NCBI GenBank assembly: GCA_030390025.1
Contig: CM059430.1
Span: 61,876,001 to 61,940,000 of the forward strand
Origin: Squalus acanthias
Lineage: Eukaryota
Length of the DNA: 64,000 bases
Direction: 5' to 3'
Below the pieces are notes generated by a model. It saw only the letters and a list, made by a program, of their open reading frames with translations. It did not search any database and had not been told where the DNA came from. A program made the translations under genes and the position numbers. This document shows positions 601 to 51,099 of this stretch, piece after piece. How positions within the stretch are numbered: the stretch's first letter is position 1; the number at the start of each line of letters is the position of its first letter.

Positions 601-1102
601 TTTATCGCAGCAAGAGCGGGGACACAACATTTAAAAATAATCACGTGGATTAACTTCTGTGTGCATGTTATAATTGAAATTAGACTTTATACTCGATAAC
701 AACACGCTTAGTGTGATAGTTTAGATGGTCATCTAACTGCAGTTTTAAACTGTTCAGGATATATTCAAATAAGGCTAATCAAAATGATATTTATACTGAA
801 AACCTTTCAAGTTATCACAATTTGTATTCGCACCTGTATGGCATGACAACGCTTCATGCGCAAGCTTAGAAGCATGAAATGGCATAACTAATTATTAATA
901 AAACGATCAAGATGGTTTAAAAAACCAGCACACAGATCTACAGGTGTTGTATTTTATAACTTGAATCTCTGTAATTGAAGCATTTGATTTCTAATGTAAT
1001 TTTTAAAGCAACACGAGAGAGAATGGGGAATGCCATACTTGATTATTTATTTTGAATAACTGTGAGACTATACCGCCGATAAGCTCTTTACAATGTTCTT
1101 AC

Positions 1103-2319
1103 CACTGACGACAAGGTTAGTTCCGCTTCCATTTGCTTTCCTGTTTCCCCGATGTGTCACTCCACAGTGATAAACTCCAGTGTCCTGGAAACTGATATTC
1201 CGAAGCTGGAAGGAGGCTCTTGCTTTCTCAGTAAGAAATCGTTTCCTGGTGTCTGAGCCTGGTTTTATCAATTCATTCTCGCCAAGTTTCCACCAATAAA
1301 TATTCACAACTGAATCGTCTTGCAAAATAGGAAATGTGCAATAGAAGACATCGGGCCAAAAATTGATGCCGCTACGCGAGAGTACGCACTGCGTACTCTC
1401 GCGTATTCTCTCTCCAATTGCCGGTTTTCTGCATGCACTGCGCATGCGCTGAAAACCGGCACTTGGTCTTTGGAAAAGGGGGCGGTTCCTCGGTGCACCG
1501 CGTGCGCGCTACAGGCTGCGCGCACGCTGTGCACTTAGTGCGTTGGACGCGCAGGTAAGGACAGAAGATTTTAGAAATGAAAAAAGGAGGAGTAAGACCC
1601 ACTTTTAACAAGGTAAGTAGTGAATTAAGTATTATTTTGAATTTTTTTTAACAGGTATATCTTTTTTAGAGACTTTAAAGACAGGTAAGTTTATTTTTAT
1701 AACTTTTTAAAAGATTTAAAATTTTTTCAAAAATTTAATTTTTTATTTAAAATGGTTAATTTATTTAACTATACTTATTTTATTAATGTGATGGTTTTTT
1801 TTTAAATTTAATTGAGGTTTAGCTGTTATTTTGGGGGGGTGTAAGATTCATAGCTTTCACAGCACGTATGTGAAACTTATGAATGGAAGATGGTGTGCTG
1901 CCATTGGCTCTAACTGAGTCACGTGATCCCACAGCTCGCACGAATTCACTACGCCGGTGGGATACGCAAGCACTGCCCAGCTGATGTCTGGAACATCAAG
2001 TTCGTGCGAGCTGGATCTGAAAAAGCCAACGCGGAGTGAGAGATCGCGCCTGCTCCTTACCCCCGCGGGAACAGAGCGAGATCAATTTCTGGGCCAATGT
2101 TTGTACCAGCCATCGAATTGGTATTTTCAGGGGCTTGGGTTACTTCAGAGTATCGGCAGCAACTATTAAGAAAATTAACATTTATTACAGTTGTAAAAAA
2201 CACGGAGAGAGATTCAGAGAGAGACAGAGAAACATAAAGCCCAAGCGCGAACGAAAGAAAATACCTATGAAAATAATCCCCATGAACTGTATGCTCCGAA
2301 GTACAGCTCTCATGTACAT
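1103..2319 (-). pseudogene. Receptor copy A: leader and V exon, disrupted; downstream exons not seen in the window
   Basis: Leader 2265-2319 (MYMRAVLRSIQFMGIIFI, donor G|GTATTT); V exon 1103-2162 with a 1-nt frameshift near its start and a MITE at 1353-2095; 3' part DVFYCTFPILQDDSVVNIYWWKLGENEL...QDTGVYHCGVTHRGNRKANGSGTNLVVS, donor G|GTAAG. Confidence 0.85.
1353..2095. mobile_element. MITE (probably PIF/Harbinger-derived) inserted in the copy A V exon
   Basis: Imperfect TIRs gggccaaaaattgat ... atcaatttctgggcc; GC-rich ends and AT-rich centre; V coding sequence resumes on both sides with 3 extra nt. Confidence 0.8.
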
Positions 2320-3970: not shown

Positions 3971-4804
3971 AGAACAGAAATGGAAAAGCTTTTCTTCACA
4001 CAGAGACTGATCGATAATGGAAGTGGACTTGGGGTACTCATGTGAGGGCAACCATCTGATATCATTTAAGAGACAATTAAATGCTGTTAATGGGGAAATG
4101 TAGGTTTCTAGATGGCTGAGCTACGATGGACCAAGTGATCTTTCAGATGAAGCTAAATGTTCAAAAGGTTTAGTTTTATCTGCACCCTAACTTCACCCTT
4201 GCTGCACAACTGAAGACATAAATAAGAATGAAGATAATATATATTTTATTTAATTGAACTGTTTGTTAGCGTGCATTTACAATGCAGCAACCGACCTTAG
4301 AGTAATAGCACTACTTCTGGTCTGCCAGGCAGACCGAAGTTGATATTGCTTAGCCCTCGACTGGTAACAGTAATGTCCAGGAGAGAGCTGGGTGCGGCGG
4401 GGATACTGTGTTGGGCACAGCGCACTTGCAACTATTAAAACTTTCGAGCGTTCAAGAAGCTTGACAAGGAGCAGCTCTTCCCCTTTAAACATGCACATTT
4501 CGTACACCAGGATTGATACTGCCCTGAATTTGCATCCAACTATGCGTCAAATCCAAGAAATGTGAGGGTGCATTCAGACCCCATCGTTACTATCACAGAT
4601 AAGCACTTTTTAAAAAAATTACTAGAAACCTAAAAATGGCTCACAAACAATAGCGATGTCAGAGTGAATCCATCTGTAGATCGAAAAATAGAAGCTCAGC
4701 ATGGTTGGATACCCAACTGCACTTCACAGACTGCAGCTACAGAGTGTGTGTGTGAGAGAGAGAAAGAGAGATTAAAAAGAGTAAAATACCCCATAAGCAC
4801 ACAA

Positions 4805-6625: not shown

Positions 6626-7990
6626 ATTTTTCTTACTCTTATACTCCAGCCTCCTTGCCATAAAGGCGAACCTGTCATTTGCCTTCCTAATTGCTTGCTG
6701 TATCTGCATGCTAACTTGCTGTGTTTCCTGTACGAGGACACCTAAATCTCTCTGAACAGCAACATGTAATAGTTTCTCACCATTTAAAAAATACTCTGTT
6801 TTTGTATTCTTCCTACCAATGTTAATAACCTCACATTTCCCCACATTATACTCCATCTGCCGCCTTATTGACCACTCACTTAACCTGTCTATATCCACCA
6901 ACTGCAAGGCACAAGTCAGGAGTGTGATGGAATTCTCTCCACTTGGCTAGATGAGTGCAGCTCCAACAACACTCAAGAAGCTCGACAGCATCCAGGACAA
7001 AGCAGCCTGCTTGATTGGCACCCCTTCTACCAACTTGAACATTCACACCCTCCACCACCAGCGCAGCGTGGCTGCAGAGTTTATCATCGACAAGATGCAC
7101 TGCAGCAACTTATCAAGGCTTTTTCGGCGGCAACTCCCAAACTCACGACCTCTACTACCTAGAAGGACAAGGGAACACCATCACCTGCAAGTTCCCCTCC
7201 AAGTTACACACCATCCTGACTTAGAAGTATATCACCGTTCCTTCATCGTCGCTGGGTCAAAATCCTGGAACTCCCAGCCTAACAGCACTGTTGGAGTACC
7301 TTCACCACACCTTGCAGCAGTTCATGAAGGTGGCTCACCACCACCTTCTCAAGGGCAATAAGGATGGGCAAGAAATACTGGCTTTACCAGCGATGCCCAC
7401 TTACCATGTACGAATTTAAAAAAATCCCTTTACAGGCTGTTTGTGTCCTCCTCACAGCTTAATTTTTCATTTATCTTTGTATCGTCAGCAAACTTGGTTA
7501 CATTACACTCGGTCCCTTCATCTAAGTCGTTAATATAAATGATAAATAGCTGAGGCCCAAGCACTGATCCTTGCGGCACCTCACTAGTTGCAGCCTGCCA
7601 ATCTGAAAATGAGCCATTTATCCTGACCCTTTGTTTTCTGTCCTTTAACCAATCCTCTAGCCATGCTAATATATTACCCGCAACCCCATTAGCCCTTATC
7701 TTGCGTAACAAACTTGTATGTGGCACATTATTGACTGCCTTTTGGAAATCCAAATATACTACATCCACTGGTTCACTTTTTTCTACTCTGCTAGTTACAT
7801 TCTCAAAAAACTCTAACAAGTTTGTTAAACACGATTTCACTTTCACAACACCATGTTCATTCTGCCTAATCGTATTATGATTTTCCAAATGTCATGTTAC
7901 CACTTCCTTATGGATTCCAGCATTTTCCCGACAACTGATGTCAGTCTAACGGGCCTGTAGTTCCCTGTTTTCACTTATCCTCCTTTCTGG
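6626..7990 (-). mobile_element. CR1 RT fragment interrupted by a nested LINE fragment
   Basis: ORFs 7430..7888 and 6608..6907 are collinear RT pieces. Confidence 0.9.
6896..7420 (+). mobile_element. Nested 5'-truncated LINE (second family)
   Basis: ORF 6951..7361 AAPTTLKKLDSIQDKAACLIG, RT C-terminal region; A-rich end. Confidence 0.8.
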
Positions 7991-15609: not shown

Positions 15610-16092
15610 CTATTTCGTTCTTGCATCTGTGTAGACAGCCTCTGTTACGCCTCTTGGGGTTTTCGTCTGTATCTCGTCATATTCTGCGCTTACTTTATTA
15701 TTTTTAGATTTTCCCGCTTTCTCGGGGCCAGACAATTCTAGAGTCGCGTACGTGACCTTGTACCGGGCTGTCCCTTGTTTTATCTGAAAAGCCAATGTTT
15801 GGAAATATTGTTGATTGGTCCTGTTACCAGTTTGTGGTTTGCTGTTCAAGGCAGCCGGCAGAATAACACACAAAAAGCTTTACATACAACACACGGTCAA
15901 AGTCAGAACAACCCGAAATACTCGACTATTACAATAATTTTGGTGCTCCACGGGTGATCTATGTTTCTCTTATCTGCTTCTCAGCCCCACCTGAGCATAC
16001 GCTGAGCTCTGCTCTTCACGTTTACATCTTGGAGTTTTCCTGGCTTTGCTCAAGTCTACTGCAGCATAAGCCACGATCTCGTCATTGGCTCC
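15610..16092 (-). pseudogene. Copy B cytoplasmic ITIM exons (15991-16092 and 15610-15783)
   Basis: Phase-0 exons GANDEIVAYAAVDLSKARKTPRCKREEQSSAYAQ | IKQGTARYKVTYATLELSGPEKAGKSKNNKVSAEYDEIQTKTPRGVTEAVYTDARTK*. Confidence 0.8.
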
Positions 16093-16759
16093 CTGCATGG
16101 GCCCGAAAGAAAATGTTTTGTTATGTGGCTAGTTCAATGCCCTCACAAATTTAGAGACTGCTGACCAAACAATAAACAGAATGACCTGGGCTACAAATAA
16201 AATGCAGAAACCACATCTAATATATTTAAAGATGTGCGAATATTTATGCCGGTAAATAGTGTGCCCATTGTAACTTACATTTCAACCTGTCGATTTTCAC
16301 TACAATACAGGGTTACAGATATGTTTAAACAAGTGGTAGTTTCGGCATCATATCAGATTCCAAAAGCAACGGTGAGATGGATGTACACATAATCAATACC
16401 TAGTTATATGTTGAATGAAGCTACGGATTCCATTTTTCTCCTTCTTTAATCACTTACACCTGCATCGCAACAAGTGTGAAAACACGATTTGAATGATTGA
16501 TCAAAGAGGGACAAATACTTTTGCGAAATAGGTTTTGATAAAATATCCCCATCATAAGAATATTTATTTACACTGGAACCCTATTCCTGGATAAATGATA
16601 TGAACCAACCAGTTCTTCATGAGGGTCTAGTATTGTTGTACTTTCCTGCTTACCGGGAAATGAATGGAATTTAATTACATTCAATGATTAGAATGTTTAT
16701 TCAGTTTCCATGTTTGCACTTTCAAAAGTATTTTACAGTCAATGTAAAGCTCAACATGA

Positions 16760-17920
16760 CTTTAGATATATAGGTTGACAGAGCAATGGCAGACGAAATT
16801 CAACGCAGAGAAGAGTAGAGCGCTACAGCTCGGAAGAAAAAATAAGCTACACATGTACTTCATGGATTGTATTAAAATAACTAAAGATGGAACTGAAAGA
16901 GACCTAGGGGTTTAGTAGACTGAACGCTAAACATGTCCACCCAATGCATAGCAGCAATGGACAAAGCCAATAGGCTGATGAACAACATAGGCAAAACAAT
17001 AGAATGAAAGTCAGAGGAGGGAACGATCAAACTGTATAGTGCTCTTGTCACACGGACCATTGAATAATGTGACCAATTTTGGTCACTAATGGCCAAGCGC
17101 TAGTGCCAGTGCAGAGAAGAGCCACCAGGCTGGTTTCCCAGGGTCAGGGGACTGAGCTGTGAGGAAACTCTGAAAAAACGTGATCTTTTAGACTGGAAAG
17201 GAGGCGTCTCAGCTATCATCTTATTGAAAAATATAAGATAGCTAAGCGTATTGAAAATGTGAATCAAGAGTTTTTTTTCATTGATTCTCAGGACTTGGGT
17301 GTCGCTGACAAGGGCAGCATTTATTGCCCTTCTTTAGTTGCCCTTAATTACAGACAACCTAACGGTTTACTAGATCACTTCAGAGGGCAGTTAAGTGTTA
17401 ACCATATTGGTGTGGAACTGATGTGACCTGTAGGCCAGACCGGGTAAACACGGCAAGTTTCCGTTTCTAAAGGACATTAATGAATTACTTAGCATTTTAT
17501 GACAACCCGATAGCCTCATGGTCACTTGACTTTTACTGATACCAGGTTTTTTATTTCCAAATTTTTAAAACTGAATCCAAATTCTCAATATGCCTCGGAT
17601 CGGTTTACCCACCTTCTCGGGATTACAAATCCAGACTTTTGACTACCAGTTCAGTAACATAAGCACTACACTACCGTACCCGTTTAGTATCAGATATTTA
17701 ACTCGGGGACACTGATAAAAAACTAGCAAATGAGAATTTTAGGCATGATATCAGAAATTCTTCTTTACAGAGAGATCAACATGAGGAACAAGTTCCACAT
17801 ACAGAAAATGAGGCAAACGACCTGAGACCCCTTAACAAACAGCTGGATTCTACACTGGGGAAACAGTCCATCTGTCGGGATGGACCAAATAACCTTCCTC
17901 ATCAGCAGTTATTTTGTGAT
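16760..17920 (+). mobile_element. Old CR1 fragment with nested SINE-like element (about 17275-17685) in a copy B intron
   Basis: Degenerate caatggcagacgaaattcaacgcagagaag...; nested piece carries the reverse complement of the 6896-7420 tail. Confidence 0.65.
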
Positions 17921-18329
17921 ATTACATTTTCCGGGCTGTTTTGAAAATCCGAATCAATGTAGCCATCTACAGTCGTGTACACCGACTCGCAACTGGACAC
18001 TGACCCCACTTTACCCAAACTAGTCACAGGCCCCCAAAGTTATGAAACATCGATCAAATTGCACTTATCATCTGCCACAAAGTGGAAATTTCCGTTGTTA
18101 ATAGCCAGATGATCAGATCATTTATAGTCTCATCCTGTGGTAATTCTTTCGTTATAAGATGCTTAATTCAGTGCAATTTGCAATAAGCAATTTCTGTTCC
18201 TGTGGCATCAGATATCATAACCTGAACCTTTAAGTAATAATCGCGCTGTTCTCCTACTGTGCCGCCCATGACGCTCTCTCTATCGCTCAAAAGATTTGTA
18301 TTAAATCAAACGATTAACGCAATACCTAC

Positions 18330-18440
18330 CTTTATTCTTCAAACTGCATCTCGTCCCAATGATGATCATGAGCACCAGAAACGCCAATCGACCCAGCGCA
18401 CATCCAAGACCCCAGATGTAACGATATTTACCATCAGATT
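18330..18440 (-). pseudogene. Copy B TM exon (ESDGKYRYIWGLGCALGRLAFLVLMIIIGTRCSLKNK)
   Basis: Acceptor taatcttgcag, donor G|GTAGG, hydrophobic run, homology to 41225-41338. Confidence 0.8.
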
Positions 18441-19603
18441 CTGCAAGATTAAAAGGATACATACTGATTTCTAATTTGTGGCTGCCGTTACCTGAAAAGA
18501 GACATCGGGATAATTTGTTGGCTAAACTGCTGTTCATACTTACAGTAACTACGCAGTATAGCAGGCGAATATGTTCATTTTGAAAATAACCTTACTTTAG
18601 CTTTTTAGATTTGATATCAAAAGAAACTTCTCACAAAAGGGTGATACACGGCCGGAATAATCCGCGAGGCAGGGTATTCGTTTTGGGTGCTCTGAGTGCT
18701 AGAGTTTGGGAGAGTTAGAATTCCAGATGAATAATTTTCGATGGACAGAAAAGCTTGTTCTTGTACTTGACTTTTATTTTGCCCTCAAACGATTGTTTGA
18801 TGAAATCGCGGCAATTCAGTGACACGTGACTCGCTATTGCCGAAGGAAAAGGCGGATTGTATCAATTGGGTTTAAATGCAAATTCAATTCTCTGCAGTGT
18901 ATTTACTGAAGTAAAACTGTCACTGAATAAGAAAGGGAACCCGCACACGGTTATTTGTTAATTACAGAAAAATAGGTGCTAATAAACCGACGTCTTGCAA
19001 CCAATTGCAGTGCAAACAGGTCTGGGTCACAGTCTGAATGAAATGTATGAAACGGGTTCCCGCTCCAAACCTCTGTATCACGGAGCGGTTGCGTTACGGC
19101 CAGTCCACAAGGCTAATTTCTGACCAATTCAGAGTCAATCGCCCAACAGCGGGAGGGATCATGAGCCGCACTGGGAGACACGCCAGGCCAGAAAAAAGAA
19201 CTGCCGCTTCTAGTCCTGCAACTTATGTAAGGAAACCAGGTAATGCGAAAGAAGAAAATCAATTTAACAAGAGCACAAATTTGAATGTTTAATAATAAGC
19301 AAGAGATGTAAAATAATTCGCTGGAAGAGCTACACCACCTGCTCATTTTTTATGCAATTTGGAAACTGCCGAGTTTTAACACGGAGTTTCTGGGTGGAGG
19401 GCGATAATATTACTTCCGGTTTTACAATAGGTTCCAGGTCAATAATTTTTTACATTGAAACATTGATTTTCACTTTGCTTTGATATTTCCCGGGAGCTTT
19501 TTTCTAACTATCTTTATGGTTATCAATATGAACAAACTCTACGAAATAGCCTTTCAGAATATAACAGTAGCTGACCTCACTTCTTGGCCTGTTGGCCTCG
19601 TAC

Positions 19604-19915
19604 CTGGGTCGGAATTAGCAACTGTGTGGATGGCAATGGCGGGAGTCACGAGGGAGGCATGAGATACCAAATAGATGTAAACAGCCTCGTTCAGCACAGG
19701 CTGCGTCTCTTCCAAAGAGCTGGAAACTTCATACAGTCCCTCAGTGTTCTGCCGTTTAATGAGATTTATCCCAGTTGCAGTTTCGACGCCATTTTTATAC
19801 CAAAAGAGGGTTAAATCGCCCGGGTAAAACTCAGCCGTTTCACACACAAGAATCAGAGACGCAGCTGCACTGCTCTCGGGTGTCCTGGAGACAATCTTCA
19901 CTGGAGTTGGGGCAG
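19604..19915 (-). pseudogene. Copy B C1 exon (open but lacks F-strand Cys)
   Basis: Within ORF 19554..19931: LILVCETAEFYPGDLTLFWYKNG...YIYLVSHASL versus YTCLVSHISL in copy C. Confidence 0.88.
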
Positions 19916-20549
19916 CTGCGGAACAGAGCATGGGGAAAATCAGGTTACTGGGGGGATAATGAAAATAAGATATGGGAGAAGAATGTTATCCTCAGTCGTT
20001 CCCTGTTTGTTAGGAACTCTAGGTCTGTCTGTCTGTCTCCCCAGGAGAGAAATGAATAATCTGTCCATCACCGATAATAAAGCAAGGCAGAAATGGATAT
20101 CGGACAGCTCACACAGCCGGAGCATGAGAACGGCTGAGCGAAATTACTTTCCCTTCAACGTCAAAAGGCTGCAACAACACAGCCTCTGGGGAATGTTTTA
20201 TTTATTGGATCGAATGAGGCACAAAATTACGGTTTGTGGACCAGTTTGTTGAGTGAATCCAATGATTAACAGTTAATTTAATCTGATCTGAAGTCCGTCA
20301 GCCGAATCAGTCTGTCAGTATGTGAGCATTAATTTCATAAGAAGGAGTGTTAAACCTCACTTACAGCGACAGGGACAAACGGCATATCTAAAATGGAGCA
20401 AGAATCGTGTATATGACGGGAGCGGGGCATTAACAGAAAAGATTTTAGGTCAATTATCAATATAGTTGGAATTTGTGCCGCAACTTCCATCATCAGAAGT
20501 CCGATGTAAAAAGATATTTTGAGATGAATCGAGTAACATGTTACTTGCG

Positions 20550-20665
20550 GGAGGTCGTCGACCTGAAACGTTGACTCTGCTCCTTTCTCCACAGCTGCTG
20601 CCTGAACTGCTGAGTATTTCCAACGTTTTTGTTTATATTTCAGATTTCCAACATCCGCAGTATAT
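20550..20665 (+). repeat. Short interspersed palindromic repeat, half copy (Penelope-associated type)
   Basis: gacctgaaacgttgactctg...gctgagtatttccaac...cagatttccaacatccgcagta; homologous to 32985-33190. Confidence 0.6.
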
Positions 20666-20897
20666 TGACTCAGTAGCATGTTAATTACTCTGGTTAATAT
20701 TGATAGCATTTTAAACAACTCAGCAAATGGAACGTCATATTGTGCCGTATAATTAGCAGTTGTGTGCAGAGTTTCAGTGTAAATGTCTTAATATAATTGT
20801 TATATAATATCAAAGACGGTGCACGTAAACAATGACAAAACATCATCCTTGCTACATTTGATATATTTGGACGTTCCCGCTCACTCCGGTCACTTAC

Positions 20898-21209
20898 CGC
20901 ACACAGTTAGATGTGATCCTGTTCCATTTTCATTAATACTTCCATGACGGATCACTGCGCAGTGATCGATTCCAGAGTCCTGGAAAGTCACGTTCAGTAA
21001 CTCAAAGAAACCGCCTCATTTTTTTTTGAGAACAAATCGTTTTCTGTTATCGTCTCCTGTTTGCAAATAACCATTCTCACCCTGTTTCCACCAGCGCACT
21101 TCTACCCCTGAATTGTTATGAGAAAGGGGGATTACGCAGTGGAAGGCGATGTCTGTCCCCCTTAATGTATTTACTTTTTTGGGAGTTTGAGACACGCTGA
21201 TCGCAGCAG
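20898..21209 (-). pseudogene. Copy B V exon with in-frame stop
   Basis: AAAISVSQTPKKVNTLRGTDIAFHCVIPLSHNNSGVEVRWWKQGENGYLQTGDDNRKRFVLKKK*GGFFELLNVTFQDSGIDHCAVIRHGSINENGTGSHLTVC; canonical AG/GT. Confidence 0.88.
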
Positions 21210-21560
21210 CTATTAGAAAATATATTCAAAGTTTGGTTAATTGTATTCTATGCGGAACTAGGCTCTTTAGAACACATTACTACATGGAAAAGAAAAAGGG
21301 AAAGCAGAATACAGACGAACGAACTATATTTCATTGATTTTGTGTGGTATCTACTTCAGATTCTTTTATTGCGACGGTTGGGCTAGAGAATAATCAGGTA
21401 CCTGTGTAAATGAAACACCGCGAGAGACAGGAACAGGAAAGGAAACATCACACTCGACAACATGCCAAGCAAAATAATCAACTGATCACTGACTGCACAG
21501 ACCGTGTGGTTACCAACGAAAGTAGGGCTTGCTGATTGTTTAATGTGAAATGCGCCACAG

Positions 21561-21574: not shown

Positions 21575-22615
21575 CTGTGACTGTTGGTTCACAAAATAGC
21601 TTTCGTTTGTGAAGTGAAATTTCATGACGATTCTGCTCTTCGGCAGCCATCACGGTCAACAAAGAATTAGAATAAAATATTGTCCGCATTTCAAATGGAG
21701 AATTTACCATCAATCGCTGAGCCAGTGTTGGTTTCTCTTAGATTAAGATGTGGAATGTGCACATTCCTTGTAGTGAACCTCCTGAGGCAAATATTCTTAC
21801 ACTTCCCTTCGGTTGTACGCTACTGTTACCGTCACACAATATACCAGACATGTAAAATCTGAACAAACTGGGAACATTTATCGATTGTTTATAATTAGTT
21901 CTTAAATAACAGTAGCAATATTTTATGAGAAAGGCTAAAGGTAAGAAAATAGCTGATTAAGCCAGCAGTTGTCTGTGTGGAGAATGTTCTACTATAATTT
22001 CACACATCGCTGCACATTCCACGGGATACTGGGGAGATCGTATTCATTGTGACGTGTTATATCTCGGGAGACCTGATATTATTCCGAACACAGTGACCTG
22101 AATCTGATCAGTCAGTCATAACGTTGGGGTTTATTTTTACATTATAATAACCATGTTGAACATTTAGGAAATAGGGATTTGATGATGCCATCAGAGAGGT
22201 GTCGATATATGCTTCGGGCCAGGGTATCTTTAAATACAATTTCCTGCTTTCAGCCGGTCCTTACTAAAATAATTGGGGGGAGAAATTCGTTATTGCCCCT
22301 TTTTGGACGCTGATTTTTGAAATCGTGAAAAATTAGCGCCAGGCGCTAATGATTTTGAGATTCCCCTAAAATGGCTTTTAGCGCTCCAGGATAGAAGTGG
22401 AGCACTAAATCAAGCGCCAATGACCTCAATAGGGCGCTACAGGGGGCCTTTCTGCAGATCTGTAATTAATTTCAGGTGCAATGCAATCGGGAATTATAGT
22501 TCACAGTGGCGCCTGCCAGCTCTGAAAGGGGTGGTTGCATCAATGTGCAGATCCTCATTATCAGCAGTGCTGGCTGCGAGGGCGACCTTCAATCAAATCA
22601 ATCCCCTGATCCTGA

Positions 22616-24480
22616 TGGCTGATCCCACTCCCAGGGAGAGAGCTCATCGCCTCTTCGATAAGGCATTGGAAGCATTGGCAGTGGGAGTGGAGCAAAGGAG
22701 GGCATTGTTTTTTCCCGAACACTGGAAGGAAGCCATTGGCCCAGGTATTCGGGGCAATGTGGAGGGAAGTGGCCCAGGAGGTCGTGGCCAGTAGTGTGGA
22801 GATCCCCAGCCTGACACAGTGCCAGATGAAATTCAACGACCTAACTCGGGTGTTCAAGCTGAGTAGATGCTTCAAAATGTCTTCCATGCCAGCATCGCAA
22901 CCTCAGTCTGTACACACTGTACAAACCACCACACCCTGACCACTCACTCAGCAAGCAACTGCACCTACATAAACTCACATCCACATCTCATGCCTTGCCT
23001 ACAATCACAGCTATTCAGCTACGACAGTCAAATCTACCAAACACGCAGCTGGACTCTGACTCACACACATTCGTTTCTCTTGCAGGTCAGAAAGGTCCAC
23101 AAAAGGAGAGAGCACCAGAGGACAGGCAGCGGCGATATGCAACTGCAGCAGCTTTCAGACCTGGAGGAGCGAGTGCTGCTACTCAATGGGTAGCAGTTGG
23201 TTGGCTCCATGGCCCTCAGCAACATCAAACCCCTTGTGGGCAACAACCATATGTTCAACCCCTCTCCTTGTCTCGTCCCACTTCTCCTTACAACACAAGC
23301 CTTTCCCACTTTCCAGCTCCTGATCCTGTCTGCATTCGTTGTTCCCTTCCTGCCCCCCTGCCCTCACCTTAAAGCGAGTCTTGTGCCTTTATGCTTTCAG
23401 AGAATCAGCAACAAGATGATCAACCTGTCCTGAGCCTCCCACTGAGAGTGAGGAAGGAGAAGAGGAGGAGGAGTAAAGCAGTGCATCAGTGAATCTCTCA
23501 GCTGCAGGCACCAACTCAGATACTGGCACTACGCGATCTTTAGAGGCAAGTTTAGTAGAGGGGTCTGGACTGGGTGATGCACCGGGGACGAGCGGGCTGC
23601 AGCAAGGCCTGGGGAAAAGGGAAAGCTTGGGAGGCATCTCCCCGGAGGGCGAGTTCCCGCATGAGTTCTTCTGTGTAGGACTCAGATGAGGACATCGATG
23701 GGGAAGCGTTCACAAGAAGTGTGATGGGCAGGCATACCGAGATGATAGGTGCAATGGCATGGGCTGACGAGAGCCTGTCGGCAATGGTAAGGAGCATGGA
23801 GAAGTCCAACTCGAACATTGCACAGAGCTCTGTGTACACCATTGAGCCCATTCTTGGTAGTCTGCAAAGGGTGGTGGACTGCCTGAGAGACCATGAGGAC
23901 CCAGACCTCATGCCGCGTGTGATGTGCGATGTGGCAGCATCCATTGCAGCACAGGCAGAAGCCATGCAAAGTCTTATTGCTGTCATGCAGTCAATGGTTG
24001 ATGGCATCGATTCTCAGACTGCTCTCATGCACTCTGACTGCTGTTATCATTGCTGGGTCCACCTCAGTCCACCGGGGATCTCATTGTGTTGCAGCTGCTC
24101 AGCAATCGGTGTTGCAGCAGATTGGTAGGGATGCTGAGGTCCTGCCCTGCGGGAGTGGCAGTGTGTCAGTCGAGCAGGAACCTGCTGCCCTCTTTCAGGA
24201 TGGCAGCATTACTGCTCCCATCATTGCCATTCCACCATTGTCCTTGCTGCTGCCTGTTATCCAGCCAGGCCAGACTGACGCCACCTATCCTGAGGTGGAA
24301 CAGTGTACAGCTGGGCTTTCCAGGCCCAGAGCTGATCGAGGGCGTCCTGCAAGTCCATCTGTAGTCTCTGGCACCAACACTCAGCAGCCTTCCACCAGCC
24401 CTGCTGCAGCTGCTGGGGAGACACTATGTCGGAGCAGCTGATTAGGGAAAGGCACTGTAAAGAGGGCAAGTAAGAGTTTG
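22616..24480 (+). pseudogene. Harbinger Myb/SANT-like DNA-binding protein, spliced and frameshifted
   Basis: RLFDKALEAL...WREVAQEV...QCQMKFNDL; RREHQRTGSG; acidic and low-complexity C-terminal region. Confidence 0.8.
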
Positions 24481-24767
24481 CACTAGGGTCTTTAGTTAAT
24501 ATTGTTGTTGTATATATGTGGTTATTGATTTTGGATAAATGTATTCTTGAAATTTCGCAGAGATGGTGCTGTGTCTCATTTCAGCTTTGGGATGTGGTAT
24601 GGCATGAGAAATTGATGGAATGATAGGGATTGGATGAGCAACTGGGAAGTGGCCTCGAATTCATTGGAACCGAAGTCATAGATCGCCCTTCCACAAGACT
24701 GATGGATTGGCTGGCTCCTCTGTCGCTGCTGTTCATGCTCCTGTTCCTCTCGTCCTTGTCCTCCTCC

Positions 24768-25860
24768 TCATTCCCCTCCTCCTCGTCTCCCTCTCCCTCC
24801 TCCTGAGGTCGTGCAGGCTATGCCTGGTGGTAATGGCTGCGACCTCATGATGGCCAGGTTGTGCAGCATGCAGCAGATGATGACGAAAAGGGACACCCGT
24901 TCAACCGAGTATTGGAGGGCTCCTCCCAAGCGGGCAAGGCAGCAGAACCATTGCTTGAGCACTCCGATGGTCTACTCACTTATGTTCCTGTTGGCAGCAT
25001 GACCATCATTGTATGAGTATTCAGGCATGAGTGTTGGGGTTGCGGTGGTGTGTAATGAGCCAGGTGGAGAGCGGATAGCTCTTGTCTCCCAGCAGCCAGC
25101 CGCGAGTTGATGTGGTGGCTGGAGCAGAGCAGGCACACCAGTCTGGCACAGGATGAAGGCATAGTGGCTGCTGCAACGATAGTGGGCATTGATGGTGAGT
25201 ATGCACTGTGTGTTGTCACACACCAACTGCACATTAAGTGAGTGGTAGCCTTTACGGTTATGGAATAGCTCAGGATTGTTATGAGGTGCCCGGCAAAGCG
25301 ATGTGTGTGCAGTTAATGGCGCCCTACACCATGGCGAAACCCGCTATCCTGGCAAAGCCACATGCATGTTCGTGCTGCTTCTCTCTGGTCATGGGGAAGG
25401 ACATGCAATCCCTTCTCCTTCTGTAGAGAACGTCTGTGACCTTGCAAATGCAGCAATGGACTGCGAACTGCGCTATGTTCGATATGTCTCCTGTTGCACA
25501 CTGGAATGATCCACTGGTGTAGAAATTGAGGGCGACGGTCACCATGACTGCTACTAAGAGAGCCATGGTGGTCCTGATGTGAGGCTCGAGGTCTGGCTGC
25601 AGGAGGTGACAGAGATCCGTGATCAGGTCCTTCGTGAAGCGGAACCTTCTAAGACATTGTTCCTCAGTGAGATTGATGTAGGAGAATTGTTGCCGGCATA
25701 CCCTGGGATGGTAAGTCCTCCTGTTTAGAGCCCTGTTAGCCCTCCTCCCTCTGCCCACATTTTGCAATCTTTCTCTCTGCCTCTGCTGCCTCCTAAATTG
25801 ACACTGGAGGTCGAGGTCCGGTGCCAGATCAGCCTCTATTAAATTATGGAAATGTTGCAC
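24768..25860 (-). pseudogene. Harbinger transposase (HARBI1-like), frameshifted
   Basis: CLRRFRFTKD...ALNFYTSGSFQ; QLVCD; [11 protein letters not shown]; CCMLHNLA spread over several frames. Confidence 0.88.
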
Positions 25861-26314
25861 TTTTAAATCTCACCGAAATGGAAGTGATAAAGTTTTCTGA
25901 AGCAGAAGATTCCTTCGAGTGGAAAACTTAGAAATCGCTGAAAACGCCTGTTAGCCTATGTCAAACTGACAAGGCAGCATTCTTTGCCGACTAAAACAAA
26001 CGGATGTTGACGCCTTTATGTAGGCCCCTTCAACACACATCGGACTGCAAGCCGCCTCCTCTACCTGTCCTTGCTAATGGCAGGCGCTCAGGCATGGGGC
26101 TAGAGTGAATTTAAGAGCTGGAGCACTACCGGGGCGCTGCGCACCCGGATGACATCACGATCTCTGAGTGCAGGAGTTCGTGGCGCTATTGGCTACTGCT
26201 GCCGCAAACCTCCACCTCAATTTTGCGGGCGTCGGTACTATCGCCGCGCCCGGTCACGCCCCGTTAGCAGCCCCGGAGGTGCTAACACGTGTCACTAAAG
26301 CACCGAATTTCTTG

Positions 26315-39559: not shown

Positions 39560-39952
39560 CAATTACACCTACATTGTATGATATAATACTGGAATACTTT
39601 ACTCTGTTTTCATTTGTTATTTTTGGATTTCCTCGTTTTTTGGAGCCTGACCACTCTAGAGTCGCGTAAGTCCCTTGTTTGTTCGGTAAATCCGTGTTTG
39701 GAAAGATTGTTTATGGGTCGGTTTGCAGTTTCTTGGCTGCTGCTCAAAGTAGTCATCAGAATAACACACAAACAACCTGAGCTACAATACACGACTAGAG
39801 TCAGCCAACCTTTTATTCTCCATTATCGCATGCATGTTGATGCTACTGTGGTGATCTGTGTCTGTCTCATCCGCTTCTCAGCCCCGCCTGAGGGTACGCG
39901 GCCCTCTCCTGTTCAAGTTTAATTCTTGGAGTTTACAAAGTGCTGCTCAAAT
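39560..39952 (-). pseudogene. Decayed remnants of the ITIM-coding exons of copy C (probably now 3' UTR/flank)
   Basis: Old frame reads YAAIDLSSTL*TPRIKLEQERAAYPQ; donor GT>GC at 39886-39887; last acceptor AG>CG at 39684-39685; remnant TYATLE with an upstream deletion. Confidence 0.75.
39812..39817 (-). terminator. Candidate poly(A) signal AATAAA for copy C
   Basis: About 135 nt after the premature TAG, followed by GT-rich sequence; absent at the homologous site of copy B. Confidence 0.4.
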
Positions 39953-39988
39953 CTATTGCAGCATATTAGCGATTTGAGCATTTGCTTC
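39953..39988 (-). CDS. Receptor copy C exon 6: truncated terminal coding exon (EANAQIANMLQ*)
   Basis: Acceptor ggcccatgtag; homologue of copy B ITIM exon 15991-16092, but a 1-nt deletion before TAT-GCT-GCA gives TAG at 39953-39955. Confidence 0.7.
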   Translation of the reverse strand, partial: EANAQIANMLQ

Positions 39989-40359
39989 CTACATGGGCCG
40001 AAACAAAATATGTTGTTATGTGTATGTGTCATTGCTTTCACCAGTTCACGTACTGCTGGTGAAACATTGAACAGAATGACCTGGGCTAGAGAAATAGCAC
40101 AAAAACCATAATGAATATCTTTAAATAGTACGAATATAAAGGCCGATAATTACTGCAATCACTGTAACTAATATTTAAACATGTCGATGTTCTCTCTACA
40201 ACACTGTGACAGACATCTTTAAATGTGCAGCAGATCTAGAACAGGAATTCATTAAGCTTTTCCCCCCAAAAAAAACAATTATTACCTAGGTACAGTTTCA
40301 ACGAAACTGACAGTTTTCTTTTGTACTCTTTAACCATTTATAACAGCACACATCGGGAG

Positions 40360-40450
40360 CGGGGGAGAAATTGGTCTTCGGCGGTAGCGCGAAACGGGCG
40401 ATAGCGAATCCGCAAACCGTTTCACACCGCGCCCGATTTTGTTTTCGGAA
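40360..40450 (+). mobile_element. Harbinger/MITE terminal fragment in a copy C intron
   Basis: gggggagaaattgg start similar to the TIR at 22275. Confidence 0.5.
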
Positions 40451-40638
40451 GGCAAATTTCTTCCCTGAGCTCCCGGTGTTAAATATTTTTCTAAACACGA
40501 TTTGAATGACTCATTACGCGGGACAAATACTTTTAGAAAATAGACAAACTGTTCTGACATGATTATGATAAAATCTCTCCATTACAGCAATCATTCTTCA
40601 TATTTCAACCCGTTGCGGAGATGCATGAATGACCCTAC

Positions 40639-40679
40639 CGGCTCTTCACTGCGTAGCAGTCCCTTTACACCTTTTTTAC
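40639..40679 (-). CDS. Receptor copy C exon 5: short cytoplasmic exon (GKKGVKGLLRSEEP)
   Basis: Acceptor attcacag, donor CCG|GTAGGG; 41 nt converts phase 1 to phase 0 as required; homologous to 16610-16653. Confidence 0.7.
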
Positions 40680-41224
40680 CTGTGAATTAATTACGTTTAA
40701 TCATAATGAATGATTGAAGTATTTACTCAGCTTCAATATCAGCGTTTTCAAAGACATTTCTGGAGAAGGTGCAAAGCCGAACATGATTCTCAATTTCAGA
40801 TTTTGCCGACAGTGTTTGAAATCCCAGTCCCTGTAGCGAGCAAAAATGGTTTACAGCCATTTCGGGCCGGTGCCTCACACCGCTTCACTCTAACTAATGG
40901 CGGACTCCCAACGGACTGGTTTGGAAAGTGATTGTGTGTCAGAGCAAATTTCATTTACCACTTGCTTCAAACTGGAAATTTCTGTTGCATATATACAAAT
41001 AATCAGATCCATTTTTAATTTGATTGTCGGAATATTTCTGCGTTTTGAGGTGTATGTATTACTGTCTGGGACAATCAGTGGACGCTGAAAACAGAAAACA
41101 CTGACTTCAAGTTTATGTCCTAATAGAATTTTCCTTACTGTGTTACTCGCAGACTCTCAGTCCCCCTCTCCCGTCCGCTCTCTGAAGTGTTGAACTAAAA
41201 TCAAAGGCTTACAGCAGATCTTAC

Positions 41225-41338
41225 CTTTATTTATCTGAAATTGGCAGTGCGTCCCAATGAAGTTCAGGAGAACTAGACACGCCAATCCACCCACCGCATA
41301 TCTAAAATACGAGTAGTACGGGGACATACCGACATCAT
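41225..41338 (-). CDS. Receptor copy C exon 4: stalk and transmembrane
   Basis: Acceptor taatcttgcag, donor G|GTAAG, 114 nt phase 1-1: DDVGMSPYYSYFRYAVGGLACLVLLNFIGTHCQFQINK; homologous to 18330-18440. Confidence 0.8.
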
Positions 41339-46662: not shown

Positions 46663-46725
46663 CTTGGTTAGATTTGGAAACAACATAGGTGACAGCAGCT
46701 GGAGTCTCGAGAGAGACATGAGAAA
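46663..46725 (-). pseudogene. Orphan 3' fragment of an extra C1 exon (ISHVSLETPAAVTYVVSKSNQ) with its donor
   Basis: ORF 46541..46741 aligns to the end of 47407-47470; intron flank also duplicated. Confidence 0.8.
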
Positions 46726-47406
46726 TGAGAAATGGATACAATCGCTTGCTTGGGCGCTTTTCTTACGGGGCAAAGAGTTTTCACAATAAGACGCATCGAA
46801 GCGGCTCTACTGTTGCCAGGTTGAGGGCACAGTTTTAGAGGTTTATGAGGCAGATCCAATTAAACCCGCTCTCATATGGACAGCAGTGCGGCAAAAGTTG
46901 GTCAGGGGGTCAATTTAAGACCACTGCGCTAGAAGTAGCCGAAATGGGGGTCAGGATAGGGAACTGCATTGGGAGCCGCCCGATTACAAACAACATGACT
47001 GCAGCTCTGGTAACAGTCTTGGTGCAAGAAGAGCGGGCAATGATAAAGAATAAAACAATCTTAAAATCGAAACAAAAGAAACTGAAATATTTTTCATTAT
47101 AAGCAGGAAATATAATCGGATGGAAAAGGGAAACTTCTGATATAGTTGTACATATCAAATAAAGGAATTTGAAAGCAAATAAGGTTTGTCTGAGAATATG
47201 TGTGTGGCGGGCGAGAGAAACTGGTTTTACAACACATCGGATTCAATTCTATTGTACATTACAACATGAATTTAATGCTTTCGTTGATATTTCCCATGAG
47301 ATTTCTGTGGACATTCTTCATGATTATTAATATGTATAAACTGTCCGATATATCTGTTTAAAAATTAATGTAGCTATCTCTCCTTTTTCGACTCTTAGCA
47401 TCGTAC

Positions 47407-47712
47407 CTTGGTTGTATTTAGAAACAACATGGCTGACAACAGCTGGAGTCTGGAGGGAGATATGAGATACCAAACAGGTATAATTGGCATCGCTCGGGAC
47501 AGGCTTTGTCTCAACCAAAGAGCTGGAAACTTCATACAGTCCCTCCGTGTTCTGCTTTTTCCTGGTATGGATTGCTAATGCAGTTTCGACGCCATTTTTA
47601 TACCAAGTGAGGGTGAAATTCTCAGGAAAAAACGCAGCGGTTTTACACAGAAGAGTCAGAGAAGCAGATGAATTCCCTTCAGTGGAGACAATCTTCAGTG
47701 GGGTTGGGGCCG
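47407..47712 (-). CDS. Receptor copy C exon 3: Ig C1-set domain, open
   Basis: Acceptor ctctgttccacag, donor G|GTACGA, 306 nt: ...LTLLCKTAAFFPENFTLTWYKNG...GLYEVSSSL...YTCLVSHISL...; C1 hallmarks (C-x4-FxP, WxxNG, YxCxVxH). Confidence 0.92.
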
Positions 47713-48752
47713 CTGTGGAACAGAGAATGAAAAAGTCGCTTCACTGGGCATCATTGGGAGATTAAATATGATTCTGATTTACCGTTCCGTTCATTTTAAT
47801 ATAATAGCACCATTAGAAAGAGCGGCCTCCAGTCCTTTTAATGTTACGCACATCATCTGCAAACACCTGATCCATATATCTCATAGACACCCGCATCTGT
47901 TCAATTTTACCCGCGCTATCAAGTCCAAGACTTAGAGTTACTCAGCAGACAAGTCGCAACGATTTGCGAATCAATGTTTGCTTTTCGTAGTCCAAAAAAT
48001 TAAGTAAATAAACCTCGGGGGAAGTTGGCACGCTGAGTCCCTCCGTGTTAGGAACAGATAGACAGTGACGAGTAATATGCACATTGTTGATGATTGAACG
48101 GGTGCTAAGTCAGTATCGCACAAATTTCACAGCCGAAGCATAACAATTGGTGACAGAAAGTATGTTGGTTGAACCTCAGGAGGTTTTAGTAACACAGTTC
48201 CTCGGTATTGTTTTATTTATTGGAGGTTAGTCAGGTGGCAACGTTGTGTGTTCAAAGTACCAGTTTGTTGAGCGAAGCCGTTGAGCAACAGTTAGTTTCA
48301 CCCTGGCTTTCGAATCCCTGACGCTAACATGATATGAGAATTAATTTCAGGAATTTTAAACCGCAAAGACAGCGATGGGGGAAGACAGAGCATCAGTAAT
48401 GGGCTAAGAGCCGTGTATATGTTGGGAGAGACGCATGAATATAAAATATTTTCAGTCAGTTATATGCACGGAATTTGTTCCGAAATTCCGCTATCAGACA
48501 GCAGGAGTGTAAATTGTGGAGTTATAGTCCAATTGGTTAATATTGATACATTTTGCTATACTCTGTGAAATTGAATATCTAATTAGCAGTTCTATACAGA
48601 GCACCCGTACATACAACTTAACTTAGTGCGAGATTTATTAATAGACATGTTTATAATGCTCAAAACGGTGCAATAAAACAATCACAAAACATCCCCGTTT
48701 TATATGCTCGATAGATTTTCGACTGTCCCGCTCTCCTGTGTTTCACACTTAC

Positions 48753-49070
48753 CATGCACAATTAGATGTGATCCGCTTCCATTTCCTCGAATTATTCCTT
48801 GACGGAGCACGGCACACTGATAGACTCCAGAGTCTTCGAAAGTCGCGCTCAGCAACTGAAAGAATCCGCTCGCTTTTGTCAGGCCAAACCGTTTTCTGTT
48901 GTCGGCGCTTGTGCGCAGGTATTCATTCTCACCCTGTTTCCACCAATACACTCTTACCCAGGAATGGTCCTGCGAGATGGGGAATATGCAGTAGAAGGTG
49001 ATGTTCCCTCCTCTGGATACAATCGCTTGTTTGGGCGCTTGAGTTACACTGAACGAAATCTGGTCCGCTG
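48753..49070 (-). CDS. Receptor copy C exon 2: VJ-type Ig V domain, open
   Basis: Acceptor ttttctgacag, donor G|GTAAGT, phase 1-1, 318 nt: AADQISFSVTQAPKQAIVSRGGNITFYCIFPISQDHSWVRVYWWKQGENEYLRTSADNRKRFGLTKASGFFQLLSATFEDSGVYQCAVLRQGIIRGNGSGSHLIVH; B-strand Cys, C-strand Trp, DSGVYxC and GxG G-strand in one exon. Confidence 0.92.
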
Positions 49071-49239
49071 CTGTCAGAAAATATAGTCAAGTACAGGTTA
49101 ATTTTATTAGACACGGCATGGAGTTGGAAGAGAGAAAAATAATCTCGATAGAGGAATTACAGTTCACAAAATTAGTGTGGAAACTACCTCGGAAGCATTT
49201 TATAAATTAAAGTAGCTGCGACAATGAATAAAGAGGTAC

Positions 49240-49294
49240 CTGTGTAAATAATCCCCCGAAGAGACAGGCACAGGAAAAGCATACTCGCCGACAT
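49240..49294 (-). CDS. Receptor copy C exon 1: leader (MSASMLFLCLSLRGIIYT)
   Basis: ATG at 49294, 55-nt exon ending phase 1 at donor G|GTACC; same length and 3' end (GGG ATT ATT ...) as the copy A leader. Confidence 0.8.
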
Positions 49295-49392
49295 TCTGAG
49301 CAATGAATTCAACTGATGACTCTCTGCAGCAACTGCGAGTTTGCAACTGTTAAGAATGGTTTGCGGTTACTTTTCTATGAGTTACGTTGCAA

Positions 49393-49408
49393 TGACGTCT
49401 GACATCAT
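49393..49408 (-). promoter_or_regulatory. Candidate CRE/ATF promoter element of copy C (TGACGT followed by TGACATCA, + strand)
   Basis: TGACGT 99 bp upstream of the ATG; same motif 98 bp (copy B) and 100 bp (copy A) upstream. Confidence 0.55.
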
Positions 49409-51099
49409 GTAATTGCGGGTTCAGAAATTCGGCTTCGTTTGTGAAGTAGGATTTTTTAACTTCTGCACTTAAATCGACTGCTGGAATCATATGTGGGACA
49501 GACAGCAAAGAGTAAAGCAATATATTTGAATTTCAAGTGCATAATTTACTAACACTTGTGGAGTGTTTCCTGACAAGTGACGGCAGTCTAAGCAGTTTGG
49601 GTACAGAGGAAAAGCGTTGAAGAATGGTGCTTTGGTTGACCATGTCAAAAGAGAGTTCAAACGAGCGAAAGATGAGATTACACACCATGTCACACTCACA
49701 CTTACTTTAATTAATGGCCGTTTTGGTGTTCTGTGAAAGCTAGAAACTGAGTGGAGATTTTGAAACAGGAACTGCTGGGGACCTAGGCACGCATCTGGGA
49801 GGTGGCAACAGGTTCACTGTTTTAATGAAAGTTGGAGATTTGGTGGCAGTTTGCAAGGAGAGAGCTGGCGAGTGTGAGTTTATTGAGAATAGGTGACCAC
49901 AGCTGTTTCCAAACGAAACGGGGACAGTCTCTACTTATAATTTATAATTTTAGCTATCATGGAGGGCAGAAAAGGAAGTTGGGTGGTCAGCGGTTAAATG
50001 CGATTGAGGTCTATGAATCAGGAGGTGTTTCATGTGGATTAGATGAGTGCATGTGGGGAAGAAGGAAGAAAAATACACGGAAACAGGGATTCAGAGGTAC
50101 GGTATGACGGGGACGAGAGATTTGGCCTGATGTGAAAGGGGAAAGGAGGAAGCTGTAGATGTAGCTGAGCGGATGGTCTCTATTTGATGACAAATAAACT
50201 CATGAGGTCTGTGAACTTAGTGGATCAAGTTTCAATATGTGGCTGGTAGAGGGGGAAAGAAACGGTGTGTTACCATTGATCTCCAGTACAATTGCAGAGC
50301 AGTGGGCAGTTGCGGCAGAGAACAGTGAGACTCTGCAAGGCTTCACATGGTCCAGCCAGATCTGACCTTGGATGGGTTGTAAGAATCCCTCGGGTCAGCG
50401 AATGTCTGCCCTAGTTTACCCTACCAATGATTTTGCTTGGAAATCTAAATTTGATATAACAAGGCTTTATTGTAACATTTAGCAGTATCAATCATACACG
50501 CAATATTAAACAGAAATTACAGATCCAATGTTGGTATTTTCCAAGCTTCTGGAAAGCAGTGCAGCATGGTAGGACTTGTTCAAAAATCTGCTGTGTTTGG
50601 TTCTGCTCGTGCTCTTGCACTTATAGCGCTTTTCTTATGCCTCTGTGGTGCATGAATATTGACAGTGATTATTTCCTCGGTGTTCTGAGTCCTTCTGCGC
50701 TTGCTTCTGCCATTTGGTACTGCGGAAGCTGCCTCGATCCGGTCGCACACGCGCACCCGATATTGCGGCGGCTGCGGCTCGCGGCCTCAACAAGCAGCTT
50801 TCCTCGGCTCTCTGTGGAGAAGTTCAAGGGACTGCATGAGGTTGGAGAGGAGAGGGGATCGAAGCGGGGTGGGTGAGATAGGAACTCGGAAGCGGGGGAG
50901 AGAGGAGCTCGGAACTCTCAGCACTCTGTGCAAACCGCACTCAGTGCAGCTCGCACAGGGAAGCCTGTTTTTATAGGCCTAGTATCTCTACTTAACTGCC
51001 TTCAGCTGCTCTGACTTATCCTCTGCCTTCTCCGGGGCTGCCGACTCCTCTCAGGTCCTCTGTCCTGGGCATCCCGCGCTCTTTATCCTCTGCCTTCTT

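Follow-up and report, generated by a model that had tools for sequence, protein, structure and literature searches.

A likely activating paired receptor in a large shark VJ-C1 family: an arginine-bearing transmembrane exon, a tyrosine-free tail and an ectodomain shared with an ITIM-bearing paralogue

Whether a receptor gene that has lost all of its ITIMs is an activating receptor, a decoy or a gene in decay is the question raised by copy C, a minus-strand gene in the 64000-nucleotide stretch of the Squalus acanthias genome analysed here (the window). Little is known, to our knowledge, about which receptors activate and which inhibit the NK and myeloid cells of sharks. The original prediction for this gene described an intact ectodomain with all ITIMs erased and proposed a conversion from an inhibitory to an activating or decoy form; the interval that it gave covers only the transmembrane (TM) exon and the tail, and we place the ectodomain at 47407–49294.

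Copy C, all of it on the minus strand, comprises a leader exon (49240–49294; 55 nt, phase 1, open, with a GT donor), an open V exon (48753–49070) in which V and a J-like GxG..LxV end are unsplit, i.e. non-rearranging, an open C1-set exon (47407–47712), a TM exon (41225–41338), a first cytoplasmic exon, cyt1 (40639–40679; 41 nt, open, AG/GT), and a former ITIM exon, cyt2 (39888–39988), of which 39988–39953 is coding and which is likely to be the terminal exon. The joined frame is 870 nt long, encodes 289 amino acids, ends in a single terminal TAG and has GT-AG boundaries at all five introns, confirming on the minus strand the open frame and canonical splice sites that had been predicted. The third intron is long and contains CR1/L2-like LINE fragments, which are numerous across the window.

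Every lesion originally listed for the ITIM exons was present, and these lesions are clustered there. In cyt2, a 1-nt deletion just 5′ of the first ITIM tyrosine leaves an exon of 101 rather than 102 nt, a new TAG stop ends at 39953, the old frame contains a TAA and the donor has changed from GT to GC and is dead. The decayed last ITIM exon, cyt3 (39600–39690, minus strand), which was placed by alignment to copy B and to ITIM-type paralogues, has lost its acceptor (AG>CG) and carries an 18-nt deletion and further deletions. The tail contains no tyrosine, as had been predicted. Because the cyt2 donor is dead, the stop would sit in the last exon, and candidate polyA signals lie 3′ of it, the first AATAAA being at 39817.

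The TM exon has AGA (Arg, 41303–41301) where copy B has GGA, also in agreement with the original prediction. This arginine precedes the inner end of the hydrophobic stretch by 18 residues, compared with 17–18 residues in most relatives with the same TM type (hereafter Arg-type). Three TM changes are private to copy C (F>C, I>N at 41264–41262 and I>F) and account for three of its differences from its sister gene g62254, which number four nonsynonymous and one synonymous. In addition, the TM of copy C is the least hydrophobic of the 27 scored, with a best 19-residue Kyte–Doolittle mean of 1.56 compared with 1.91–2.65 for the others. The TM asparagine, to which attention had been drawn, is therefore present but private to this gene, and we rejected it as a signalling residue of the lineage.

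Copy B (15610–21463, minus strand), the ITIM-type gene that had served as the inhibitory reference, turned out to be a pseudogene rather than an intact gene: its 62-nt leader is frameshifted, its V exon has an in-frame TGA at 21018, its cyt1 acceptor is dead (CG) and it has a private TM arginine of its own (CGA at 18390). As a pseudogene, it was rejected both as the ancestor and as the intact partner of copy C. Copy A (1071–2165, minus strand), probably a pseudogene, is a V exon of another subfamily split by an insertion of approx. 0.75 kb; a third TM type, with the arginine three residues further out, is found in g62201 and L051, which are related to it. Between copies B and C, at 22300–25900, lies a GC-rich segment with open frames that we take to resemble those of a Harbinger/PIF-type transposon.

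Of 115 matches to the V exon of copy C in the same genome, 111 lie on contig C6 at 57–77 Mb, and both ITIM-bearing and ITIM-less tails are found within this cluster. We modelled 32 of the 115 V-match loci, namely the nearest V matches together with the TM matches to copy C, and surveyed 20 more. Pseudogenes are common in the family: of the 11 Arg-type genes, five have a disrupted V, C1 or TM exon. Relatives, under mixed automatic names, were found in Heptranchias, Heterodontus, Scyliorhinus, Mustelus, Stegostoma, Chiloscyllium, rays and Callorhinchus, and all 54 of the species-naming hits at E≤1e-40 were from cartilaginous fish. These relatives have the V-C1-TM layout, and ITIM-like motifs, up to five per protein, are present in many of them. 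More distant matches were a coelacanth PTPNS1-like and a pig SIRPβ1-like protein (1e-17), and the best solved structures were UrIg2 (7e-18), antibody chains and SIRPα (2wng, 5e-14).

Several individual members of the cluster deserve description. In the ITIM-type genes g62768, g62507 and g62647 (L013–L014 and L017–L020), both ITIM exons are tandemly duplicated. The gene g67730 (L007–L008, G000:C6:67.73 Mb) is a 96–98% identical duplicate of g62254, 5.5 Mb apart from it, in which TM, cyt1 and cyt2 are deleted and V and C1 are still open; as its 54-nt leader is frameshifted, it is more likely to be a pseudogene than a secreted form. In both g62048 (L001:790–860) and g67895 (L009) the first ATG is missing, but Met5 remains in frame and the rest of the gene is intact, which hints that translation can begin at Met5.

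The Arg-type TM and its tail lesion extend well beyond copy C. Its TM type is found in 11 of the 29 modelled genes that have a TM exon; cyt2 is 101 nt long in all 11 of them, compared with 102 nt in all 11 of the other genes with this exon in view, and the arginine codon is AGA in each of the ten open Arg-type TM exons. In the TM tree the Arg-type genes form one clade (support 100/99), and a catshark protein, P0014, in which a V domain of the type found in copy C is combined with the same Arg TM and a tail of five residues, falls inside that clade (100/99), indicating that the switch predates the split from the catshark lineage. In a sequence-word search with the catshark TM region, only the protein itself matched among three candidates. 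Since the deletion is common to all 11 Arg-type genes, the frameshift is not an assembly error, and on the same count we rejected it as a young lesion. A conversion within copy C itself, a recent date and an origin from a B-like gene were therefore not borne out, the Arg TM and dead tail belonging to an old clade that includes the catshark protein and copy B being a pseudogene. The accompanying caveat of a young pseudogene fails for the tail lesions and retains some force for copy C itself, given its three private TM substitutions.

Within the Arg-type lineage the old ITIM frame contains stops in five of ten genes, compared with none of eight ITIM-type genes. Eight of ten Arg-type genes stop inside cyt1 after approx. 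11 residues, whereas copy C and g62254 read on into cyt2. Selection on these exons was assessed by pairwise dN/dS, as the original prediction had advised: the value for the V exon was 0.97 (0.67–1.41) across all Arg-type genes, but 0.50 (0.31–0.82) within copy C's subfamily. For the Arg-type TM exon it was 0.36 (bootstrap 0.19–0.67, the pairs not being independent), although the contrast is not a sharp one because ITIM-type TM exons gave 0.80 (0.40–1.73). Seven of the ten open Arg-type TMs (L021–L028, G000:C6:61.98–62.69 Mb) have an aspartate four residues past the arginine on the same helix face, which could pair with the arginine or alter the choice of adaptor.

The Arg TM and dead tail of copy C are old; its ectodomain is young. 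The nearest V and the nearest C1 exon to those of copy C are both from g62048 (G000:C6:62047994), a plus-strand gene lying 123 kb away in the opposite orientation, with an uncharged TM and a full ITIM tail. The two genes are 99.4% identical in V and 98.4% in C1, but 68.4% in TM; the two differences in V are both synonymous, and those in C1 are three synonymous and two nonsynonymous. This likeness extends over a block of approx. 2.3 kb (46757–49100, minus strand) that contains V, the following intron, C1 and part of intron 3, has a mosaic left edge at about 49050–49440 and was likely copied from g62048. Within it, copy C is 92–100% identical with g62048, falling to 69–78% directly downstream, whereas identity with the Arg-type gene g62254 is 91–96% in the downstream flank and mostly 74–92% inside the block; g62048 itself is near 90% identical with its own relatives throughout. 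As the flank matches g62254, the block does not, and g62048 is uniform against its relatives, copy C is the likely recipient.

The right junction bears a scar (46663–46759, minus strand), which begins with a 27-nt piece of V exon (46759–46733) and continues as a C1 remnant made up of the last approx. 60 nt of copy C's former C1 exon with its donor. This remnant is a near letter-for-letter match to the end of the g62254 C1 exon, and not to copy C's current C1. We infer that the V-C1 block was copied from g62048 into copy C by gene conversion or template switching. The two copies now differ at 7 of 624 exon sites compared with 62 of 1686 intron sites (Fisher p=0.0008), and five of the seven exon differences are synonymous (p=0.013); the selection behind this low exon divergence could have acted on copy C or on g62048. 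The suggestion of paired-receptor evolution in a shark is thus supported in part, the stronger evidence for it being the near-identical V-C1 of an ITIM-bearing paralogue that lies outside the window.

The V, C1 and TM trees were built from 26 rows, after two degenerate genes, one distant gene and three lacking a TM exon had been set aside. In the V and C1 trees Arg-type and ITIM-type genes are intermixed, monophyly of the Arg-type genes is rejected (p-AU 8e-62 and 3e-66 respectively), and the Arg/ITIM state changes eight and seven times respectively, compared with once in the TM tree. There are three further Arg/ITIM near-twins in V, namely g62378/g62345, g62689/g62726 and g61987/copy B, although at least one partner of each pair is broken. 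ITIM exons were present in all six uncharged-TM genes for which we extended the search into the tail.

The combination of a TM arginine with loss of ITIMs recurs outside the clade of copy C. A second TM lineage, at 75–77 Mb, has arginine in the same column, and no ITIM exon was detected within 20 kb in the four genes of this lineage that were extended. Among database relatives with a TM called, two or more ITIM-like motifs were found in none of 19 Arg-type proteins (0/11 and 0/8 by set) compared with 37 of 65 others (19/28 and 18/37), counts that come from predicted gene models, exclude rows without a callable TM (15/54 and 24/69) and are not free of isoforms, of kin or of a few rows from outside the family; a single loose ITIM-like motif is present in six of the 19 Arg-type proteins. 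A 65-row TM alignment includes 25 rows that were scored as Arg, and in 24 of them the arginine falls in one column. Monophyly of the Arg-scored rows was rejected (p-AU 4e-4, nine changes), which makes a repeated origin of the Arg TM likely; a single origin for all Arg TMs was accordingly rejected, on an alignment of only 39 columns and an unrooted tree, in which gains of the arginine cannot be told from losses. One gene, L044, has both a TM arginine (4409–4523) and ITIM exons (6957–7414, both in gene-strand coordinates) and is 88–93% identical with the uncharged ITIM gene L046, making it a possible intermediate or dual-signalling form.

The cluster thus combines ITIM-bearing and ITIM-less members, a shared ectodomain, and a conserved basic TM residue with a short tail, as paired receptors do. 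Judged from its sequence, copy C is probably an activating paired receptor of this VJ-C1 family, with signalling predicted to run through FcRγ or CD3ζ. It would be a leader-VJ-C1-TM protein with a short tyrosine-free tail, the N-terminal TM arginine of which would dock on an FcRγ or CD3ζ dimer. Such a receptor would share its ligand with the inhibitory twin g62048 and give the opposite signal, and would thereby counter pathogens that exploit the inhibitory receptor. Receptors that assemble with FcRγ are described in PMC1440944 as having an arginine in the N-terminal TM segment (position 3 in the case of FcαRI) and as withstanding wide changes at other positions, whereas type I partners of DAP12 have a central TM lysine. 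Two ζ/γ-family TM exons with the conserved cysteine and aspartate are present in the genome (G000:C5:143156198 and G000:C1222:25571). One of these is presumably CD3ζ-like and the other FcRγ-like. Complex prediction with the Arg TM exon and a dimer of the FcRγ-like TM yielded no verdict, with scores of 0.05 and 0.02 against a mark of 0.34. Three presumed-RNA runs (one study, tissue unknown, contigs only) gave no cover of the exon bins, which is evidence neither for nor against expression.

Copy C may, however, be a weakened member of a real class, since it has the least hydrophobic TM, private TM changes, many broken kin, a twin without its first ATG and a V exon dN/dS of approx. 1 across the lineage. 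The state of g62048 also tells against the activating reading, as the inhibitory twin would need Met5 as its start; moreover, eight Arg-type genes end their frame differently from copy C and seven of these eight have the additional aspartate. It is conceivable, if on balance unlikely, that the Arg-type lineage is truly activating and that copy C is a decaying or ER-retained member of it, with a TM that no longer inserts or assembles. The three private substitutions including the asparagine, the lowest hydrophobicity of 27 TMs, the high pseudogene rate of the cluster and the messy scar beside C1 are what such decay would predict, but six exons and five introns are all intact, and since the copying event the exons have changed less than the introns and mostly at synonymous sites, although copy C or g62048 could equally have been the target of this selection.

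An ectodomain nearly identical with that of the twin would be just as useful to a non-signalling decoy or adhesion receptor competing for the twin's ligand. The motif-free tail is in keeping with this, and so is the position of the arginine, which lies close to the outer edge of a hydrophobic core that is short and might just mark the membrane interface. We consider such a role improbable, because a decoy needs no arginine and yet the residue is held in one column in 24 of 25 rows from several lineages that do not form one clade (p-AU 4e-4), accompanies short tails, and occupies the N-terminal position of the arginine in FcRγ partners as given in PMC1440944. The chimaeric structure itself would be spurious if the V-C1 block of another g62048 haplotype had been joined in assembly to a g62254-like gene. 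Tandem immune clusters are error-prone, and for the one DNA run no piece across the junction was found among the longest pieces listed. This explanation is nevertheless very improbable, as the difference between copy C and g62048 amounts to 3.7% of intron sites within the block and that between copy C and g62254 to approx. 9% downstream, two false junctions 2.3 kb apart would be required, and the same pattern is seen in three further Arg/ITIM twin pairs and in the catshark protein. An activating paired receptor therefore remains our preferred reading of copy C.

Of known systems, the SIRP family, with inhibitory SIRPα and activating SIRPβ1, is similar in its ectodomain of a J-like V and C1-set domains, in its paired organization and in the multi-ITIM tails of its inhibitory members, comparable with the up to five ITIM-like motifs of the shark relatives. 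The nearest Atlas clusters to the relative P0006 are SIRPα-named (score 0.97), and RefSeq labels many relatives PTPNS1-like. However, the shark genes have one C1 domain where SIRPs have two (V-C1-C1), their family has more than 100 V exons, and antibody chains score as well as SIRPα against it. SIRPβ1 has a central TM lysine and signals through DAP12, whereas copy C has an arginine near the outer leaflet and no TM lysine. The human SIRP genes are flanked by NSFL1C, which contains a SEP domain; SEP-domain matches lie on C8 and C11, with none of four on C6, this being a single synteny marker, and a TPI match lies on an unplaced contig.

LILRA, NKp46 and NKp30 (NCR3) resemble copy C in having an arginine in the N-terminal TM segment and a short tail. 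Their ectodomains differ from that of the shark family, being C2-type in LILR, FcαRI and NKp46 and a single VJ domain without C1 in NKp30, whereas copy C has a C1 exon. FcαRI, which couples to FcRγ/CD3ζ, has the same TM and tail arrangement (PMC1440944), and NCR3 is MHC-linked according to PMC12227049. None of 50 MHC class I matches lies on C6, many being on unplaced contigs. Human CEACAM1/3 and Siglec pairs are also homogenized by gene conversion. In Xenopus CEACAM, as described in PMC5112662, ectodomain conversion occurs between oppositely oriented paired genes, and the ligand-binding exons are near-identical between inhibitory and activating members, as they are in copy C and g62048. Unlike in CEACAM, which is a different protein family, the shark block spans introns, V and C1 and leaves a C1 remnant, and activation by copy C is predicted to use an adaptor, the gene having no ITAM of its own. 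The non-rearranging shark genes UrIg and UrIg2, the latter being the best PDB match, share the unsplit VJ and C1, but UrIg genes are described in PMC12227049 as encoding several C domains and as located in the MHC or the antigen-receptor complex, whereas the shark family has one C1 followed by a TM and paired signalling tails; the word ITIM is absent from that text. The sequences suggest that the shark family resembles SIRP, LILR and CEACAM pairs in its working, without the two C1 domains and TM lysine of SIRP or the single V domain of NCR3.

In the literature that we searched, no description of a shark VJ-C1 family was found, and the available parts of PMC12227049, PMC10751288, PMC6795676 and PMC13262535 make no mention of it; papers on shark NCR3/VJ and on skate MDIR and supplementary files, which were outside this search, may mention the family. 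This shark paired-receptor family is thus apparently undescribed so far. The mechanism is of a known kind; the apparent novelty lies in the existence and size of this family and in its recurrent use of a single TM position. More broadly, and with somewhat less than even confidence, we propose that in cartilaginous fish, from chimaeras to sharks and rays, a non-rearranging VJ-C1 family of more than 100 genes, with receptors like antigen receptors in build, would be the main paired NK/myeloid receptor system, in which activating forms would have arisen several times by the same-position Gly>Arg change with loss of ITIMs, would signal through FcRγ/CD3ζ and would stay matched to their inhibitory twins because ectodomains are converted time and again; copy C would be a fresh example, in which the scar can still be seen. 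The question of activating and inhibitory receptors in sharks becomes testable at this locus because activating/inhibitory twins such as copy C and g62048, a defined target residue for mutation and the adaptor genes are all available in the same genome. Mammals and frogs, in which paired receptors are known to evolve by ectodomain conversion, would thereby be joined by cartilaginous fish, and a large non-rearranging VJ-C1 family would enter the debate on the precursors of antigen receptors.
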